NCBI GenBank assembly: GCA_002341165.1
Contig: DDNL01000090.1
Span: forward strand, 1-32,000
Length of the DNA: 32,000 nt
Direction of reading: 5' to 3'
Source of the DNA: Shewanellaceae bacterium UBA2521
GTDB taxonomy: Bacteria > Pseudomonadota > Gammaproteobacteria > Enterobacterales > Shewanellaceae
The notes beneath the pieces were generated by a model that made no database searches, was not told the DNA's origin, and saw only the letters and a list, made by a program, of their open reading frames with translations. Position numbers and translations under genes: made by a program. Below, piece by piece: positions 1,098-16,794 of the stretch (position 1 is its first letter; every line of letters starts with the position of its first letter).

Positions 1098-3077
1098 TTA
1101 TGAATAGGTTAACTCAGAATTTAATTTTGTTTGAGATGCGAGCATCTTATCTCTTCTATACGCATTGACCTTGGCATACACAGAGAGTAAACCGCCAGCC
1201 ATCATAAATAAGGCTCCAAACCAAAGCCAACGAACAAAAGGTTTATAATTGAGACGCACAGCAAAATCTGTATCATTAATCGGTTCACCTAAAGTCACAT
1301 AGAGATCTCTAAATAACCCCCAATCAATACCAGCTTCTGTCATATTCATAGTGCGCACTTCATAAAACCGACGCTCTGGTTTAAGCAAAGCAACCACATG
1401 CTGATCTTCTTCAACTAAAATCTCGGCACGTTGCGTACGGTAATTAGGACCTTGAAACCAATTTGCCTGTAAAAAAGTAAAGTGATATCCAGCCATCTCT
1501 ACTTCTGTATTGGGTCCCATACGTACACTTTTCTCGATTTCATAATTTGAGACCATAGTTGCACCCACAGTAGTGATTGCAATACCAGCATGCGCTAAAA
1601 CCATAGCGGCAAGGTTCGGGGTAAAACGATGCCAATGCAAGCCAGACTCAGTCGAGACTACTTTTTTTACCAAACTACATGTTGCTAAAAAAATCCATGC
1701 AGCTAAACCCAAACCTAATGATGCCCAAATATTCATTTGTCCATCAATCCACCAAGGTGCGAAGCATCCAAAGAGAGGCGCAATCCAAATGTTCCATTTT
1801 ATAGCCTGTTTTAAAGATGGAGCATCATTTTTACGCCATCGCATCAAAGGCGCAATGCCCATCAAGAAAAAGCTGAGTAATGCTAAAGGTACAAAGACAA
1901 GATTAAAGTAAGGAGCACCAACAGATATTTGACCTAAACCTAATGCATCTATGAGCAAGGGATACAAGGTACCAAGTAAAACCGTTGCACAAGCAACGAC
2001 CAATAAAATATTGCCAACGAGAAGTAACATATCTTTTGAGATCAACTCAAACTTCACAGCGGAACGCATCTGCTTTGCGCGTAAACCAAATAAAAATAAA
2101 GACCCTCCAACAACAACACACAGCAAAAGTAAAATGAATAATCCTCGTTCAGGATCCGAGGCAAAAGAATGTACCGAGGTCAGCACACCTGATCGCACTA
2201 AAAAAGTACCCAGCAAGCTTAAAGCAAAAGACGCAATCGCCAATAAAATAGTCCAGTTATAAAAAAGTGCCCGCTTCTCACTCACAATTAAAGCATGCAA
2301 CAAAGCGGTGCCTACAAGCCAAGGCATAAAGGACGCGTTCTCAACAGGATCCCAAAACCACCAGCCACCCCAGCCTAATTCATAGTAAGCCCACCACGAA
2401 CCTAAAGCTATGCCTCCTGTCAGAAAAGTCCATGCCACTAAAGTCCAAGGCCTGCACCAACGCACCCAAGCAGCATCAATACGCCCACTTAATAATGCAG
2501 CAATAGCAAAAGCAAAGCTTACAGAAAAACCAACATATCCCATATACAACATAGGAGGATGCACAATTAAGCCAAAGTCTTGCAGCATAGGATTCAAATC
2601 TCGACCTTCAGCTGGAATCTGTGTTAAAACACGTGAGAAAGGATTAGATGTCCATAACATGAAAGCACTAAACCCTGTAATGATCATACCTAAAACAGAT
2701 AATACGCGTGTTACAAAAGCAGCTTCTATTTTTTTTGAGAAAAAAGTAATAGCTACCATCCATAAAGCAATATCGAGTACCCACAACAAAAAGGATCCTT
2801 CATGTCCTCCCCAAGTCGCCGCTATTTTATAAGGTAATGGCAGCTTCGTGTTTGAGTTTTCTGCGACATAACGTACAGAGAAATCATCCACCATAAAACT
2901 GTGAATTAAAAAAAGAAAAGCTATGAGAAAGAAAAAACCTGTTGCGCGAGCGAAAACTTGAGCATAACCGAGCGCCTCGACATCAGATAACCGACGTGTC
3001 AACACAAGGACGAAGCTCAGTAAAATGGAAAAGCAAAAACCAATAATTAAGGCAAAATGGCCTATCTCAGGAAACAT
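1098..3077 (-). CDS. ccmF: Cytochrome c heme lyase subunit CcmF
   Basis: 659-aa polytopic membrane protein with the tryptophan-rich heme-handling motif GWGGWWFWDPVEN. The N-terminus MFPEIGHFAL is typical of CcmF. Confidence 0.95.
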   Translation of the reverse strand: MFPEIGHFALIIGFCFSILLSFVLVLTRRLSDVEALGYAQVFARATGFFFLIAFLFLIHSFMVDDFSVRYVAENSNTKLPLPYKIAATWGGHEGSFLLWVLDIALWMVAITFFSKKIEAAFVTRVLSVLGMIITGFSAFMLWTSNPFSRVLTQIPAEGRDLNPMLQDFGLIVHPPMLYMGYVGFSVSFAFAIAALLSGRIDAAWVRWCRPWTLVAWTFLTGGIALGSWWAYYELGWGGWWFWDPVENASFMPWLVGTALLHALIVSEKRALFYNWTILLAIASFALSLLGTFLVRSGVLTSVHSFASDPERGLFILLLLCVVVGGSLFLFGLRAKQMRSAVKFELISKDMLLLVGNILLVVACATVLLGTLYPLLIDALGLGQISVGAPYFNLVFVPLALLSFFLMGIAPLMRWRKNDAPSLKQAIKWNIWIAPLFGCFAPWWIDGQMNIWASLGLGLAAWIFLATCSLVKKVVSTESGLHWHRFTPNLAAMVLAHAGIAITTVGATMVSNYEIEKSVRMGPNTEVEMAGYHFTFLQANWFQGPNYRTQRAEILVEEDQHVVALLKPERRFYEVRTMNMTEAGIDWGLFRDLYVTLGEPINDTDFAVRLNYKPFVRWLWFGALFMMAGGLLSVYAKVNAYRRDKMLASQTKLNSELTYS

Positions 3078-4889: not shown

Positions 4890-5270
4890 AGAAGAGTTGG
4901 AGTGGGCGCATAAGCCGGGTTCTGTCTCTTTATCCAAGATAAAGAGGGTAGTCATTCATCTAGACCACAAATCACTCTGTGGTTCAAGCAATCTACCCGC
5001 TCTCAATGCGGACAACATTAAAGAGAGCCTATTTGATCTTGCTCCGAGTGGAGTTTACCTTGCCACAAACAGTTACCTGCTGTGCGGTGTGCTCTTACCA
5101 CACCCTTTCACCCTTACCTGTATCAATAAAATTGATCATCGGCGGTCTACTCTCTGCTGCACTGGTCGTAAGCTTGCGCTTCCCAGGCGTTACCTGGCAC
5201 TCTGTCCTGTGGAGCCCGGACTTTCCTCCCCGTTGAATACAACGCAGCGACTACCTTGCCCACTCCAGCC
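4890..5270 (-). ncRNA. rnpB: RNase P RNA, bacterial type A
   Basis: The reverse complement reads GGCTGGAGTGGGC...GGGGAGGAAAGTCCGGGCTCCACAGGACAGAGTGCCAGGTAACGCCTGGG...ACGACCAGTGCAGCAGAGAG...CAGGTAAGGGTGAAAGGGTGTGGTAAGAGCACACC...GGTAAACTCCACTCGGAGCAAG...CTAGATGAATGACTAC...ACAGAACCCGGCTTATGCGCCCACTCCAAC. This matches the universally conserved RNase P RNA blocks as I remember them from E. coli M1 RNA. P1 pairing is GGAGTGGGC/GCCCACTCC. A TATAAT box on the - strand lies at 5275-5280, just upstream. The ends are approximate to within about 5 nt. Confidence 0.95.
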
Positions 5271-11202: not shown

Positions 11203-12411
11203 CTAATTCATATATGAATCGCCATAATACTTAGATTTTTGATCTTGCCACTCAAGCGTATGTCGCAGCTCAAGAATAGCAATATTTAATTCTTCTAATC
11301 GATCAAACTTTTTGGATACAACAAAGCCAAAATTCTGCCTAAAGAACTGAAAAGGTAAAATAACAAAGTTTTCATAATTACCTTTTCTTTGTTCTTTTTT
11401 CAAACTAAATCGGTTCACCGCATCATCATTGATCATCGCATCAATCACACCAATATCCATAGCATAAAACTTCTCAGATACAGAGTCATAGCCAATATAA
11501 GAAATCCCTTTTTCTCGAGCATAAGCTTCATGGGTTGTACCACTTTGAACACCAACTCTATAATTGATTAAATCACCCACCCCTGAAATCGAACTACTTT
11601 GAACACCAAGCGTAAAGTAACTGGCTAATAAAGCCGTGATACCTGCTAAAAATAAAGTACTAAATACTGCGAGGAACACAGCTAAGACACGACCTGTTAA
11701 GGTTTTAAACTCATAATAATTAAATGGCCCTTTTGTAATAAATAGCAAGCCTAAAATAAAAGCCTCAATAGCTCGCTTGAAATAACCCAGTTTATCCATA
11801 GCATAAATTTTGTCATTTATATTATGCTCTAAAAAATAAAAAACTATAGATACTGTAATTGCTAAAAAGAACAATAAAGAAATAATTCCTGTAAATCGAC
11901 TCGATTGAAATAAAGATTTAAATTGTTCCCAAGCATTTGATCTTCTTGTGACAATAGATACGTAGGTTTCAAAGTAAGAGTGAGTAAAGCTTGCTCTTTT
12001 GAAACGCTCAGAGGTAATAGTGGTACAAGATAAGCCAATATCAAGCTCATTCTCCATGACATTTTCTAGATGCTCTTTCCAAGTCACGCGATGAAGCTCA
12101 TACTCAAGCCCTAACTGAGCGGCGACTTTGTCCCAAAGATAAACAGCTAAACCCGTTGTTGTGCCATCTTCGTTAAAAAAAACGAAAGGTTCACACTCAG
12201 CAGCTCCAACTTGAATCGCTCCTGATTTCTCTTTTTTTAAATCTTTTTGTCTTGCTTCCTCTTGTTGTTCTAATTTACGAAGCGCTTCATAATCAACCTG
12301 ATTAAACTCTTCCTCTTGCGCAAAGGATAAAGAAATACTGGCGGTAACAAAGCCTACCCAAAAGCAACATTTAAGGATATGTTTAGTAAAAGATATATAT
12401 TTGGCTTTCAT
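11203..12411 (-). CDS. Periplasmic amino-acid-binding (SBP family 3-like) domain split by a two-TM pore: GluR0/iGluR-like ligand-gated channel, paralog A
   Basis: 402 aa. Order of parts: signal peptide; lobe-1 segment (VGAAECEPFVF...GLAVYLW...TTITSERFKRASFTHSYF); TM1 (IISLLFFLAITVSIVFYFL); pore helix and loop (AIEAFILGLLFITKGPFNYYEF); inner helix (TLTGRVLAVFLAVFSTLFLAGITALLASYF, closely resembling KcsA TLWGRCVAVVVMVAGITSFGLVTAALATWF); lobe-2 segment (VGVQSGTTHEAY...GVIDAMINDDAV). No further TM segment follows. Confidence 0.7.
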   Translation of the reverse strand: MKAKYISFTKHILKCCFWVGFVTASISLSFAQEEEFNQVDYEALRKLEQQEEARQKDLKKEKSGAIQVGAAECEPFVFFNEDGTTTGLAVYLWDKVAAQLGLEYELHRVTWKEHLENVMENELDIGLSCTTITSERFKRASFTHSYFETYVSIVTRRSNAWEQFKSLFQSSRFTGIISLLFFLAITVSIVFYFLEHNINDKIYAMDKLGYFKRAIEAFILGLLFITKGPFNYYEFKTLTGRVLAVFLAVFSTLFLAGITALLASYFTLGVQSSSISGVGDLINYRVGVQSGTTHEAYAREKGISYIGYDSVSEKFYAMDIGVIDAMINDDAVNRFSLKKEQRKGNYENFVILPFQFFRQNFGFVVSKKFDRLEELNIAILELRHTLEWQDQKSKYYGDSYMN

Positions 12412-12479
12412 AACAAAAGTACCTATAACATTAATTTTTATCTACACAGTAGGCAAAAAACTATTTCAAACAAAAGCAA

Positions 12480-13703
12480 CTAATTTAAATATGCTTCTCC
12501 ATAGTATTTTCTTTTCTGCTCTTCCCACTCAGATGTTTCTCGAATACGCAGTAACTCGACATTAAGTTCATCACGCTTTTTAAAAAACTTAGAGATAACA
12601 ATACCTATGTTTTGTCTTAAAAACTGATGAGGTAAAATCTCTAGGTTCTCAAACTTTCTACTTAACTGCTCTCTAGGTAAGAGATATCGATTGATTGCAT
12701 CATCAGTAATGATTGCATCCACAACTCCTACCTCAACAGCATGATATTGCTCGAGTGTTGATTCATAAGGAATATAAGAAATACCTTTGCTTTTTGCATA
12801 AGCTTCATTAGTCGTACCAGCGTGGACAGCTATTCTGAAATTGGCCAATTCTGAAACGTTACGAATACGATGACTCTGGATACCTGTAATCAAAATACTC
12901 GCCATCAATGCCGTGATACTCGCTAAAAATAATGTACTAAATACCCCTAGCAAAACCGCCAGAACTCGACCTGTTAAAGTTTTAAATTCATAATAGTTAA
13001 AAGGCCCTTTGGTGATAAAGAGTAACCCCAAAATAAAAGCTTCGATAATGCGCTTGAACCAGCCTAGCTTATCCATTGCATAGATTTTATCGTTAATATT
13101 GTGTTCTAAAAAATAGAACACAATAGAAACGGCTATGGACAAACAAAAGAGTAAAAGCACAATACTTGAGAACTGATTAGATTTAAATAAAGCTAATATT
13201 TGCTCCCATGTATCCGATTTCTCTGTGACAATAGAGACATAGGTTTCAAAAAAAGGATAGGAAAAATAAACACTTTGAGCCCGAGAAGCGCTAATTGATG
13301 TACAAGATAAACCAATATCAATTCTACCTTCACCGGCATACTCAAGATGTTCGGGGAATGAAGTGCGCTCAATGGTATATTTCAGGTTAAGATTCTTAGC
13401 AATTTGCTTCCATAAATAAACAGTCAAGCCCGTCACGCTACCATCTTCTTCGTAAAATACAAACGGAGGACACTCTGCAGCACCAACTCTAACTTCATCT
13501 GTATTTCTTTTTTGCTTATGTGACTGTTCTTGCTTGTTAAAAAGCTCCTGATCTGCAACATTGAAATCTGATTCATTCGCATAAGAGACATAAGATAAAA
13601 TAAGGCCAACTGATGCCATCATCAGTACCAAAACTGGTTTTAAGCGCATATAAACTAACACATAACATATATCTTTGTAGCGTCTATCCATCATTTTTTG
13701 CAT
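12480..13703 (-). CDS. GluR0/iGluR-like ligand-gated channel, paralog B
   Basis: 407 aa with the same architecture as paralog A. The pore module is 58/60 identical to A, while the binding lobes are only roughly half identical. The start is uncertain: the ATG at 13649 (MRLKPVLVLMMASVG...) would give a cleaner signal peptide. The 68-bp gap to paralog A has no terminator, so the two are probably one operon. Confidence 0.7.
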   Translation of the reverse strand: MQKMMDRRYKDICYVLVYMRLKPVLVLMMASVGLILSYVSYANESDFNVADQELFNKQEQSHKQKRNTDEVRVGAAECPPFVFYEEDGSVTGLTVYLWKQIAKNLNLKYTIERTSFPEHLEYAGEGRIDIGLSCTSISASRAQSVYFSYPFFETYVSIVTEKSDTWEQILALFKSNQFSSIVLLLFCLSIAVSIVFYFLEHNINDKIYAMDKLGWFKRIIEAFILGLLFITKGPFNYYEFKTLTGRVLAVLLGVFSTLFLASITALMASILITGIQSHRIRNVSELANFRIAVHAGTTNEAYAKSKGISYIPYESTLEQYHAVEVGVVDAIITDDAINRYLLPREQLSRKFENLEILPHQFLRQNIGIVISKFFKKRDELNVELLRIRETSEWEEQKRKYYGEAYLN

Positions 13704-13875: not shown

Positions 13876-14667
13876 ATGGACTTTAAATTAATCGCACATA
13901 AACTAATGCCATGGGTATTTACAGCTATATTTTTTAGTGGTATTTCTACATTCTTCTTCACTTTCAAACTTTTTCATAATGTCGATAAGCTAGAAATTGC
14001 GTCACAAGAAAAGTTTCAGTCTTACCTAGTAGCCGATGAGTTACGCCAAAGCTCAGATGATCTCACTAGATTAGTAAGAACTTTTGTTATAACAGGTAAT
14101 GATGACTATGAAAAAATGTTCAAAGATGTCATCTCGATTAGAGATGGCATGACTCCTCGACCTCAAAACTACCATCAAATCTATTGGGATTTCGTTATGA
14201 AACATGGTGATAAACCCAAGCCTGATGGGGAACCTATTGCCATACGAGAACGTATGCGTCAGCTCAGCTTTGCAGAGCAAGAACTTAAGTATCTCACTAA
14301 AGCTAAAGACAATTCAGATAAGCTCATCGGAATTGAAATGGATGCGATCAACGCAACGCGTGGCTTATATCGAGACGAAAGCGATAAATATACCCAAAAA
14401 GGACCTAAGAAAATCCAGTGGGCTATTCAAATCTTGCATAATAGACAATATCATAAAGAAAAAGCGAAAATCATGCGCCCGATTGATAACTTTCTATATG
14501 CTGTAGAAAAGCGCACTTCAGATGCCTTCAGCGATAAAATTAAATCAATTAATAATGCCATCATGTTCATTCTTTTTATCAATGCAGGATTATTGATCTT
14601 CTCTGTATTGAGCTTTGTCTCTTTAATACTTGATAAAAAGAACATTAAAAAAGAGCAAGAAAATTAA
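13876..14667 (+). CDS. Two-TM membrane protein with a periplasmic helical sensor-like domain and no cytoplasmic output domain
   Basis: 263 aa. TM1 is about residues 11-33 and TM2 about residues 229-252, leaving only about 11 residues after TM2. The periplasmic segment contains YLVADELRQSSDDLTRLVRTFVITGNDDYEKMF...RDGMTPRPQNYHQIYWDF. From memory this resembles N-terminal sensor modules fused to HK, GGDEF or MCP outputs in other gammaproteobacteria; I have not verified that. Confidence 0.45.
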   Translation: MDFKLIAHKLMPWVFTAIFFSGISTFFFTFKLFHNVDKLEIASQEKFQSYLVADELRQSSDDLTRLVRTFVITGNDDYEKMFKDVISIRDGMTPRPQNYHQIYWDFVMKHGDKPKPDGEPIAIRERMRQLSFAEQELKYLTKAKDNSDKLIGIEMDAINATRGLYRDESDKYTQKGPKKIQWAIQILHNRQYHKEKAKIMRPIDNFLYAVEKRTSDAFSDKIKSINNAIMFILFINAGLLIFSVLSFVSLILDKKNIKKEQEN

Positions 14668-14737: not shown

Positions 14738-14858
14738 ATACTTTTTTTCAAACATACTGATTAAAGCTCAACCACTTCACAAGCCAGCACTCAACCCAAG
14801 TTCAATTATGATATACTGCTCAATTGACTCTGATTTTGGTTACAACATATCGTATTTT

Positions 14859-15014
14859 ATGAAAAAAAAAGATTTGCCAACTAAAATTTGTCCTGTTTGC
14901 CAACGCCCTTTCACTTGGCGCAAAAAGTGGCAAAAAGTCTGGTTACAAGTGCGTTATTGCTCTGAGCGCTGCAGACGCAAACGCTCTACGCATAAGGCAG
15001 ACCCTCATACATAA
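14859..15014 (+). CDS. DUF2256-family small zinc-ribbon protein
   Basis: 51 aa: [42 protein letters not shown]. The CxxC...WRKKW...YCSxRC pattern is characteristic of DUF2256. I prefer the ATG at 14859 over the upstream ATG at 14808. Confidence 0.65.
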
Positions 15015-15162: not shown

Positions 15163-16794
15163 CTACACTTGAAACTTACCTGTCATGTTTCTTAAATCTG
15201 TTGCTAAGCTGAGAAGATCACTACTTGATTTATTCAGTCCTTCTGCCTGATCAGATGTTGCTTGAGCAGAACTGTGCACATTTTTGAGTGACTTAATTGT
15301 TTCCTCAATAATATCTTCCTGTCTACTACTTGCTGTAACGATTAACTTATTGCCTTGATTAATCTTTTTCATAGCCAACTCAATGGTATTGAGTACACCA
15401 CTTGCAGCTTGTGCTTTTCCGCCCGTTTCATTGGCATATCTTGAGCTTTCTATAATCGACTCAACCGCTTTACGTGTACCCTGCTGAACTTGCTGTACTG
15501 AATTCCTAATTTCTGTTGTGGAGTTGAGGGTTCGGTTTGCGAGAGTTCTCACCTCATCGGCAACAACAGCAAAGCCTCTTCCTTTCTCTCCTGCACGCGC
15601 CGCTTCAATCGCAGCATTAAGCGCCAACAAGTTTGTTTGATCTGCAATATCATTGATGACACTGATTACAGATTCAATACTCTCTACTTCATCACTTAAA
15701 GTCACAATATCATTGTTAATTTCTGTGACCTTTTGCACAAGAACCTGTGTTGACTCAACAGACTCATTCACCACTTCGTGCCCTATTTCCGCCTCTGACA
15801 ATGCATCACTTGCAATATTGTTTGCATTTTCTGCATGCGCTGAAACTTCTTTTGCACTATCGCAAAGAGAGTTAATAGAAACATCAATGGTATCGAGTTT
15901 GGCCAGCTGATCTTGAATGCCATCAGCCGTATCATTACCAATAGCGACAATATTATCAGATGTTTTTTTAAGATTTTGTGAAGCAACATTGATCTGTGTC
16001 ATGATCAGATGAATCTGCTTGAGCATATCATTTAAATCAACCGACATCACTGAGATTTCATAAGGACAAAGTGTATCGGCTTTAACTGTTAAATTACTGT
16101 TTTGCGATACATCACTTAAAACACCTGATAGGTTTTTGATAGATTTTTGAATCGCTCTATAGTTAAAGACGTTCACAGCAATCATAAAAATAATAACAAG
16201 AATATTCAGTATAACGGTCAAATTTTGTATCGAGCTATACTGATCTGCTATCGTTTTACGCTCAAGAGAAGCTTGGTTCAGTTGAATCTCAACCAGTTCA
16301 GTAATCTTATTACTGATCGGATCAATCGTATCATAAAGCGGACCATCAAAGTCGTTCAGCTGATAAGCAACGCGTCCTTTCATCGTACCCAGCTTACGAA
16401 TTACATCATCAACAGATTTATCTGCTGGAATAAAAAGCGCTTCAGCCTCTTTAGCCAATTCAAGCTCCTCTTCAGGCAGCTCAGACTCTTTATAAATTTT
16501 CCAGTTTTTCGCAATATGACCTTTAGCAAACTCTAAATTCTCTTTTGCTTCTTCTGCCGTTACAATACCTGTGTTCGCTTTGTTCACAGCATCAATAATT
16601 AATACAGCATAATCGTCTGCAATGGTCTTAAGCGTACGTAAAGGCACAACGCTGGAGTCGTAAATAGATACCGCCGAGCTCTCGATACCTTGAAGGGACT
16701 TTAAAGATAAAAAAGCAAACCCTATCAAGAAAAGCAGAGGCACAACAGATGTGATAATTAATCGATATTTAATACTGAGTTGGCTCAAACTCAT
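15163..16794 (-). CDS. Methyl-accepting chemotaxis protein (four-helix-bundle periplasmic sensor, HAMP, MCP signalling domain)
   Basis: 543 aa with TM1 (residues 10-30), a periplasmic domain of about 160 aa, TM2 ([16 protein letters not shown]), then the canonical hairpin-tip sequence [35 protein letters not shown]. Confidence 0.9.

Follow-up and report, generated by a model that had tools for sequence, protein, structure and literature searches.

Tandem genes for iGluR-like subunits with a lysine-bearing, non-potassium pore motif in an uncultured marine gammaproteobacterium

The stretch of DNA analysed here, termed the window, comprises the first 32,000 nucleotides (nt) of contig DDNL01000090.1 (assembly GCA_002341165.1, Shewanellaceae bacterium UBA2521) and stems from an uncultured marine gammaproteobacterium with a GC content of about 38%. 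It contains two adjacent genes, A and B, and we favour the reading that they encode paralogous subunits of the ionotropic glutamate receptor (iGluR) type, and more specifically of the prokaryotic "Group 2" kind that lacks both the transmembrane segment M4 and a K+ filter. It appears fairly likely that the two products are co-transcribed subunits of amino-acid-gated channels without K+ selectivity, and that they are able to form homomers. With its unusual tandem arrangement, the locus adds one more member to a known but so far experimentally unexplored family. What is new here is the tandem pair itself, the only one among 71 loci, a pore with much stronger conservation than the ligand-binding domains (LBDs), and a conserved neighbour gene on the opposite strand that encodes a sensor domain.

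Two adjacent genes with the core architecture of ionotropic glutamate receptors

An initial annotation of this DNA had placed a tandem pair of open reading frames (ORFs) at 11203-13703, and two same-strand genes are indeed found there, with the following parts:

11203-12411, minus strand: gene A, iGluR-like subunit of 402 amino acids (aa), based on the ORF, Pfam, an AlphaFold2 (AF2) model and Foldseek
Parts of A (residues): signal peptide 1-31; charged linker 32-62; S1 63-160; M1 171-195; P-helix and loop 210-237; M2 238-269; S2 271-402
12480-13703, minus strand: gene B, iGluR-like subunit of 407 aa, based on the ORF and the Pfam profiles SBP_bac_3 and Lig_chan
Parts of B (residues): signal peptide ~1-42; S1 67-165; M1 176-200; P-helix and loop 215-242; M2 243-274; S2 276-407

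In case of gene B, M4 or M19 may be the true start; the sequence collection used for the comparisons has B called from M4 (P0005), and the 407-aa version is without an exact record there. As the same gene arrangement is found in independent assemblies (NCBI GCA_001049275.1, Logan SRR5321793 and a Tara scaffold), it is not an assembly artefact. In one NCBI assembly, on a contig of 32,753 nt, gene A is broken into products of 79 and 330 aa (P0089, P0001) at a T8 homopolymer (window ~12174-12181), which fits a T9 in place of the T8; the 402-aa gene is intact in the window and in at least four other sources. This break may be due either to a sequencing error or to strain-level pseudogenisation.

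Both proteins have the same order of parts, i.e. signal peptide, S1, M1, a re-entrant P-loop, M2 and S2, and a third transmembrane (TM) segment is absent. This order of the iGluR core without M4, which the initial annotation had read from the sequence, is recovered by Pfam, by the sequence search against the PDB, by the AF2 model, by Foldseek and by the family alignment. Hydropathy analysis indicates for A and B an N-terminal signal sequence, two strong TM segments and a weaker hydrophobic stretch between them, and it detects no TM segment beyond S2, i.e. no M4; the C-terminus ends after S2, and there is no amino-terminal domain. The Pfam profile SBP_bac_3 matches A with an E-value of 1.8e-19 and B with 1.3e-19, and as positions 3-131 of this 132-position profile are stretched across residues 68-397, the substrate-binding protein (SBP) fold is broken by an insert of about 110 residues. 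On this insert, the profile Lig_chan (PF00060) matches with 26.8 bits in A (E 5e-6) and 24.9 bits in B (E 2e-5), and precomputed PF00060 matches exist in most homologues. Lig_chan-Glu_bd matches the end of S1 (A E 2.6e-5, B E 5.8e-5), and Ion_trans_2 gives no match in A or B at E <= 1.

Two outcomes had been named at the outset as speaking against a channel, namely that no channel profile matches and that the insert is a mere membrane anchor. Neither is the case: a channel profile does match, if below its gathering score, and the AF2 model of A, a monomer built on an alignment of 81 sequences with a mean predicted local distance difference test score (pLDDT) of 86.9, resolves the insert into a helix at 171-195 (M1), a short helix at 210-227 followed by coil at 228-237 (P-loop), and a long helix at 238-269 (M2). 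When this model is compared with the PDB by Foldseek, the top matches are chains of NMDA and AMPA receptors that comprise LBD and transmembrane domain (TMD), with E-values of ~3e-19 and 375-410 aligned columns, and soluble amino-acid-binding proteins rank after the iGluR chains. At the sequence level, phmmer searches of the PDB recover amino-acid-binding proteins, the ligand-binding core of Nostoc GluR0 (2pyy, 1.7e-11), as well as GluN2C/2B/2D and GluD2 across S1-M1-P-M3 (E ~4e-6 to 1e-4), and the best 60 matches listed for a TMD-only profile of the family are all iGluRs. The loop between M1 and P is positively charged, as read from the sequence, which fits a cytoplasmic location of that loop.

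Pore loop and gate

The pore is the part of the two proteins that defines the family, and the relevant features are as follows:

11701-11784, minus strand: A, pore helix and filter-equivalent loop YFKRAIEAFILGLLFITKGPFNYYEFKT, the most conserved family segment
11716-11736, minus strand: A, TKGPFNY, with K227 at the putative equivalent of the Q/R site and of KcsA T75
11605-11700, minus strand: A, gate helix M2 (equivalent to M3), carrying the SYTANLAAF-like AGITALLASY, from the TMD-only family profile alignment
12978-13061, minus strand: B, pore helix and filter-equivalent loop, 2 of 28 residues unlike A in the sequence comparison
12993-13013, minus strand: B, TKGPFNY
12882-12977, minus strand: B, M2 gate helix with ASITALMASI, from the family alignment

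In the family alignment, conservation peaks in the P region, with a mean entropy of 0.48 bits as opposed to ~1.4 bits in S1 and S2, and the stretch LGLLFITKGPFNY.EF is essentially invariant. The MAFFT alignment sets TKGPFNY without any gap on the T-TVGYG-D of the K+-type relatives. Relative to the K+ filter, a Lys thus takes the place of the Thr that is equivalent to KcsA T75, and Pro and Asn take the places of two filter glycines, which excludes a canonical K+ filter. The initial annotation had termed the pair GluR0/iGluR-like, and the likeness to GluR0 holds for the architecture; it does not hold for the pore, which has TKGPFNY in place of TVGYG and lacks an Ion_trans_2 match.

KcsA T75 has been aligned with the Q/R site of kainate receptors (GluR6 Q590), and D80 with the Glu at +4 (Panchenko et al., PMC2217257). 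Together with the gap-free alignment to the GluR0-like sequences, this would make K227, by transitivity, the equivalent of the Q/R site, and the pore helix in the AF2 model of A ends at exactly this residue. In distant prokaryotic relatives, the corresponding position of the T-x-G-P motif is occupied by R in P0330 (TRGP), by Q in P0338, P0341 and P0343, and by S in P0346. The pore motifs of distant prokaryotic iGluR-like proteins also grade towards TTVGYGD types.

Fully R-edited kainate receptors still conduct, with a low unitary conductance, without polyamine block and with a PCl/PCs permeability ratio of ~0.74 (PMC3753602). With four lysines at the Q/R-equivalent apex, and by analogy to these edited receptors, the pore of A and B is predicted to be of low conductance, divalent-excluding and poorly cation-selective, and it is possibly partly anion-permeable.

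The gate motif is retained in a degenerate form. The family consensus SITAVLAST aligns in the TMD-only profile with SYTANLAAF of AMPA receptors, and T259 and A260 are invariant. The individual motifs are GITALLASY in A and SITALMASI in B, with I for Y and L for N relative to SYTANLAAF.

Ligand-binding site

11932-12225, minus strand: A, lobe 1 (S1), containing T131 and R136 for binding of the alpha-carboxylate as well as the invariant pair C73/C129, from family alignments, 2pyy and solved amino-acid-binding proteins
11206-11601, minus strand: A, lobe 2 (S2), containing G292-T293-T294 and D329 for binding of the alpha-amino group, from alignments

The motifs to which the initial annotation had drawn attention are all present, i.e. 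TITSER, SGTT and DAMINDD in A and SISASR, AGTT and DAIITDD in B. The retention of the alpha-amino-acid-binding residues in both copies, which had been claimed on this basis, agrees with the alignment of 81 family sequences, in which R136, T/S131, T293 and D329 (A numbering) are invariant or nearly so, K+-type GluR0-like relatives included. T131 of A is a Ser in B, and this Thr/Ser of S1 stands five residues before the Arg. The same Arg and Asp have been described as fully conserved and as the contacts to the alpha-carboxyl and the alpha-amino group (Ger et al. 2010, PLoS One 5:e12827). As these contacts are conserved in the alignment, it is a sound inference from the sequences that A and B bind a ligand of the alpha-amino-acid type.

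The residues near the pocket differ between the two proteins, with TITSER/SGTTH in A versus SISASR/AGTTN in B. Two residues ahead of the conserved G87, A has a Thr (T85) and B a Val, and the Vibrionaceae clade has an aromatic residue; position 85 of A may correspond to the "lid" residue Y450 of GluA2. The pocket of the Vibrionaceae clade is further off, with SCISITPER/ASTSS versus SCTTITSER/SGTT in the window proteins. A pair of cysteines is located beside the pocket on lobe 1 (C73/C129 in A, window 12193-12195 and 12025-12027; C78/C134 in B). It is invariant in the TKGPFNY family, and Ala and Pro are found in its place in the K+-type GluR0-like relatives; judged from this pattern, the pair probably forms a family-specific periplasmic disulfide.

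A small marine family of Group 2 receptors

The protein search yielded 86 relatives of A and B, the closest named ones with ~40% identity in Photobacterium, Moritella, Ferrimonas, Vibrio and Desulfosediminicola. A survey with a single genome for each species gave 68 loci and added Aliivibrio, an Oceanospirillales genome and an alphaproteobacterial metagenome-assembled genome. When 1.84 billion cluster representatives were searched with the TMD-only profile, 96 proteins were found at E <= 1e-3 and 28 at E <= 1e-10, and this pore type therefore marks a small family, which is marine and mostly from Vibrionaceae. Its members usually carry the name "transporter substrate-binding domain-containing protein", or also "polar amino acid transport system substrate-binding protein", just as the initial annotation had expected for auto-annotated proteins of this kind.

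This kind of protein has already been described bioinformatically. Among 22 prokaryotic proteins with iGluR topology, 12 have a K+ filter (Group 1) and 10 have "P regions we do not recognize" (Group 2), and the latter were judged to be nearer to eukaryotic iGluRs (Ger, Rendon, Tilson & Jakobsson 2010, PLoS One 5:e12827). Group 2 includes Vibrio fischeri ES114 YP_204476.1 (entry #42, 366 aa, NC_006840) and Photobacterium profundum SS9 YP_132561.1 (PLoS One 5:e12827). The A. fischeri ES114 homologue in our collection (L071 5899-6999, 366 aa, LGVLFITKGPFNYFEF; 37% identity, E 7e-72) has the same pore motif, is located at ~1.2075-1.2086 Mb of NC_006840.2 and fits YP_204476.1 by replicon and length, and the P. 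profundum orthologue is L021. A and B, with S1 and S2 around two TM helices and a P region without a recognisable K+ filter, fall under the definition of Group 2. The family itself had therefore not gone unnoticed; no functional study of it was found in the literature searches.

The window proteins share with the other Group 2 proteins the topology of S1, two TM helices with a P-loop, and S2, without a K+ filter. They differ in forming a separate clade, which shares ~40% identity with the members from Vibrionaceae, Moritella and Ferrimonas and 57-60% with a small number of metagenomic sequences, and in having a tandem pair with a divergent sensor-domain neighbour, whereas the 68 other loci are single-copy. 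With Synechocystis GluR0 (slr1257) and Group 1 (P0083-P0086), they have in common the M4-less S1-M1-P-M2-S2 order, the signal peptide, the periplasmic LBD, the same Arg and Asp ligand contacts and the same spacing from P-loop to M2; however, the identity is only ~25%, and Group 1 has TTVGYGD and Ion_trans_2 (PF07885), whereas the motif of A and B is TKGPFNY and Ion_trans_2 does not match them. GluR0 itself is K+-conducting, and recent physiological work ascribes to it a role in K+ uptake and volume regulation (PMC13099474). Eukaryotic AMPA, kainate, NMDA and delta receptors resemble A and B in the LBD-TMD core fold, in the SYTANLAAF-like gate motif and in a non-K+ pore with an apex position of the Q/R/N type, which would be Lys in A and B. 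Unlike these receptors, A and B have neither an amino-terminal domain nor M4, their identity to them is 15-18%, and the pore loop is 2-4 residues longer.

Proposed mechanism

How could such proteins function? The data show architecture, homology, residue conservation and gene order; tetramerisation, gating, ion selectivity, ligand class and co-transcription are deduced. On the GluR0/iGluR paradigm, the signal peptide would export S1, M1 would cross the membrane inward, the P-helix and loop would re-enter from the cytoplasmic side, and M2 would cross outward, so that S2 could complete the periplasmic clamshell. An alpha-amino acid or a close analogue would be held in this clamshell by Arg136, Thr131, Thr293 and Asp329 (A numbering). 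M1, the pore helix with its loop, and M2 would constitute one quarter of a tetrameric pore, and closure of the clamshell would pull at the S1-M1 and M2-S2 linkers and open the M2 bundle crossing at the SYTANLAAF-like motif. Ions would then pass the Lys-bearing apex, and ligand binding would shift the membrane potential rather than serve K+ uptake. As to the tandem, the most likely reading is that two ligand specificities would feed the same kind of pore, with homotetramers that perhaps also co-assemble.

Several points weigh against this reading. The Lig_chan scores of A and B are below the Pfam gathering score of 30.8 bits. The best E-value of the TMD-only profile against the PDB is 0.014 and concerns M3 only, and the pore loop is not significantly alignable with eukaryotic iGluRs. 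A monomeric AF2 model cannot show a tetrameric pore. The equivalence of K227 with the Q/R site is transitive, via GluR0-like sequences and a published alignment, and in a weak direct phmmer alignment to GluN2C the N site falls on I225, two residues off; K227 is therefore assigned to the Q/R/N site with a tolerance of two residues. With four lysines at its apex, the pore could be non-conducting. The ligand is deduced as a class only, scans for promoters and terminators are weak evidence, and the literature searches found no functional study of any family member, Vibrionaceae type included.

The pore of eukaryotic iGluRs is a non-selective cation pore of unclear origin, and GluR0, with its K+-channel pore, is the only functionally characterised bacterial iGluR that our literature searches turned up. 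The present family combines the gate motif of iGluRs with an invariant non-K+ loop of its own (TKGPFNY), in which a basic residue stands at the apparent equivalent of the site that is RNA-edited (Q/R) in AMPA and kainate receptors. Studying these M4-less proteins of ~370 residues in mature form bears on the question of which ions such pores conduct and on whether the Q/R-site logic predates eukaryotes, and the tandem pair bears on whether bacterial iGluRs can be heteromeric or multi-ligand. Such work would also mend the widespread mis-annotation as "ABC transporter substrate-binding protein". The pore motif with the Lys at the putative Q/R site is the best reason to study the family, and this reason applies equally to the cultured Vibrionaceae members. 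The benefit would be limited, as the family was flagged bioinformatically in 2010 and the cultured Vibrionaceae members are easier to test.

Paralogy and the possibility of heteromers

12412-12479, minus strand: spacer between B and A, 68 nt, covered by promoter and terminator scans

A and B are paralogues that share 57% identity across 384 aa in BLASTP (E 1e-165), and this identity is unevenly distributed, with 93% across residues 189-248 versus 51-52% in S1 and S2. Recent gene conversion was considered as the cause of the near-identical TMDs and was rejected: synonymous codon identity is not raised there (0.46 in the TMD versus 0.55 and 0.51 in S1 and S2), and this lack of homogenisation points to purifying selection instead. 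All 68 genome loci and the metagenomic locus L003 are single-copy, and two copies are present only in the window organism. LBD distances and neighbour-joining trees give the topology ((A, P0002), (B, P0004)), with A nearer to P0002 than to B in 99.85% of the bootstraps. The duplication is therefore older than the split from the L003 organism, which has the A-type only. In the TMD, A is nearer to B than to P0002 (78% versus 72%; 91% of the bootstraps), with 15 versus 8 informative sites that are mostly I/V/L/M swaps, which is a weak hint at co-evolution or at a lineage composition effect. As neither a promoter-like nor a terminator-like site is found on the coding strand of the 68-nt spacer, B and A are probably co-transcribed as one operon.

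These data have to be considered for the question whether A and B form an obligate heterotetramer (e.g. 2:2) with two ligands or two types of binding sites, as in GluN1/GluN2, which would then be the first heteromeric bacterial iGluR. The tandem position with its probable co-transcription would suit such an assembly, as would the combination of nearly identical TMDs with LBDs of ~51% identity, and the grouping of the TMD of A with B and of its LBD with P0002 is compatible with co-evolving pore domains. Nevertheless, an obligate heterotetramer is rather doubtful: an A-type orthologue occurs as a lone gene in L003 and L100, in both cases beside the same neighbour gene, the single copies at 68 of the 68 wider-family genome loci indicate that homomeric function is the family norm, and the TMD signal is weak and could be due to lineage composition.

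The divergent neighbour N263 and non-channel functions

13876-14667, plus strand: N263, conserved divergent neighbour of 263 aa, with a TM segment, a periplasmic helical sensor module of ~200 residues and a second TM segment
13704-13875, no strand assigned: intergenic region of 172 nt that separates the divergent genes for B and the sensor domain, with two minus-strand promoter-like sites that are consensus matches only

N263 has no output or cytoplasmic domain and no Pfam match. Its orthologues are found head-to-head with a channel gene in L099 (94% identity), L003 (64%) and L100 (68%); the channel gene of L099 is of the B-type and 89% identical to B, and L100 has a partial A-type gene upstream. 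The pairing of N263 with a channel gene thus occurs on four contigs and in two genomic contexts, the rest of the neighbourhood being unlike between the window and L003/L100. Homologues of N263 are N-terminal sensor modules of methyl-accepting chemotaxis proteins (MCPs), histidine kinases, GGDEF proteins and cyclases. The AF2 model of N263 (pLDDT 94.6) gave nothing significant in the comparison with the PDB (best E 0.04), with a generic four-helix-bundle likeness to NarQ and PcaY. The idea that N263 is a duplicate of the sensor domain of the neighbouring MCP was dropped, as no similarity was found. A stand-alone copy with 48% identity in Vibrio sp. JC009 is not beside a channel gene, and N263 is absent beside the channel genes of the wider family. 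Judged from gene order alone, N263 could possibly be an auxiliary subunit, a partner, a regulator or a co-regulated sensor of the channel.

An MCP gene (4HB_MCP_1 and MCPsignal) is located at 15163-16794 of the minus strand, two genes from the channel pair, and MCP genes directly precede the channel gene in Aliivibrio (L059/L071, positions -1/-2) and Vibrio ulleungensis (L052, -1/-2). This proximity is inconsistent across genera and may be a coincidence in MCP-rich genomes. No gene neighbourhood is kept across genera, with synteny within genus only; the neighbours of the channel gene differ in Photobacterium, Aliivibrio, Moritella, Ferrimonas, Vibrio, Desulfosediminicola and Oceanospirillales.

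Could A and B then be membrane-embedded amino-acid sensors or tethered binding proteins with a non-conducting "pore", which would serve N263 or a chemoreceptor? The invariant Lys at the pore apex could block cation flow, N263 is a conserved sensor module without an output domain, and MCP genes are nearby in the window, in Aliivibrio and in V. ulleungensis. Such a function is unlikely, however, since it is hard to reconcile a mere anchor with a P-loop that is the most conserved segment, since the gate motif is retained, and since kainate receptors in the R-edited form remain conductive despite four basic residues at that site. Moreover, the wider family does without N263, and the MCP proximity is not conserved across genera.

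A more far-reaching view would combine the heteromer with the neighbour: A and B would form the first known heteromeric bacterial iGluR, its Lys-bearing pore would be non-K+-selective and possibly anion-permeable, N263 would be its auxiliary component, and the whole would transduce multiple ligands into membrane potential. This combination is quite improbable; if true, it would provide a living model for the origin of non-selective iGluR pores and of heteromeric assembly.

Potassium channel or transporter component

To the amino-acid-gated channel without K+ selectivity that we favour, two further alternatives exist. A glutamate-gated, K+-selective channel of the GluR0 type, to which the heading of the initial annotation points, could be suspected because of the M4-less architecture, because the pore loop has the same length as in the K+-type relatives P0083-85 and aligns to them without gaps, and because the V. 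fischeri member was once named "glutamate-gated potassium channel". As TVGYG is absent, with Pro and Asn at the filter glycines and Lys at the T75-equivalent position, as Ion_trans_2 does not match A or B, unlike the K+-type relatives, and as Ger et al. put these proteins outside the K+-filter group, such a channel is at odds with the sequence and very improbable.

The periplasmic binding proteins for polar amino acids (GlnH, ArtJ, FliY/cystine-binding) share with A and B the two-lobe fold and the alpha-amino-acid-binding motif, and the strong SBP_bac_3 match, the NCBIfam likeness to Gln/Arg/cystine-binding proteins and the names in the source databases would suggest ordinary SBPs of ATP-binding cassette (ABC) transporters; this is hardly credible, as the NCBIfam scores are far under the family cut-offs (best scores 59-63 bits versus cut-offs of 256-312, overall about 60 versus 250-500 bits), as the fold is broken by the 110-residue membrane pore module with two TM segments and a P-loop, and as no ABC permease or ATPase gene, i.e. 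no transporter partner, is among the genes called around the pair.

Other observations

A metagenome contig scan with the back-translated clade motif NDKIYAMD (AAYGAYAARATHTAYGCNATGGAY) gave 27 loci, none of which encodes a channel according to tblastn, the 8-residue motif lying inside unrelated genes. Several of these 27 unrelated contigs (L072-L098) share flanking residues, and NDKIYAMD is thus in their case a conserved motif of some other protein family.

In the Rfam scan, no riboswitch or leader was found near genes A and B; the only match in the window is a full-length RNase P RNA of bacterial class A at 4895-5266 of the minus strand (330 bits). A small, zinc-ribbon-like DUF2256 protein of 68 aa is encoded at 14808-15014 of the plus strand, between the sensor-domain gene and the MCP gene. 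CcmF, encoded at 1098-3077 of the minus strand, has ~60% identity to its best named homologues, which are from Shewanella, and the lineage is present in the Tara Oceans data from the deep chlorophyll maximum (DCM).

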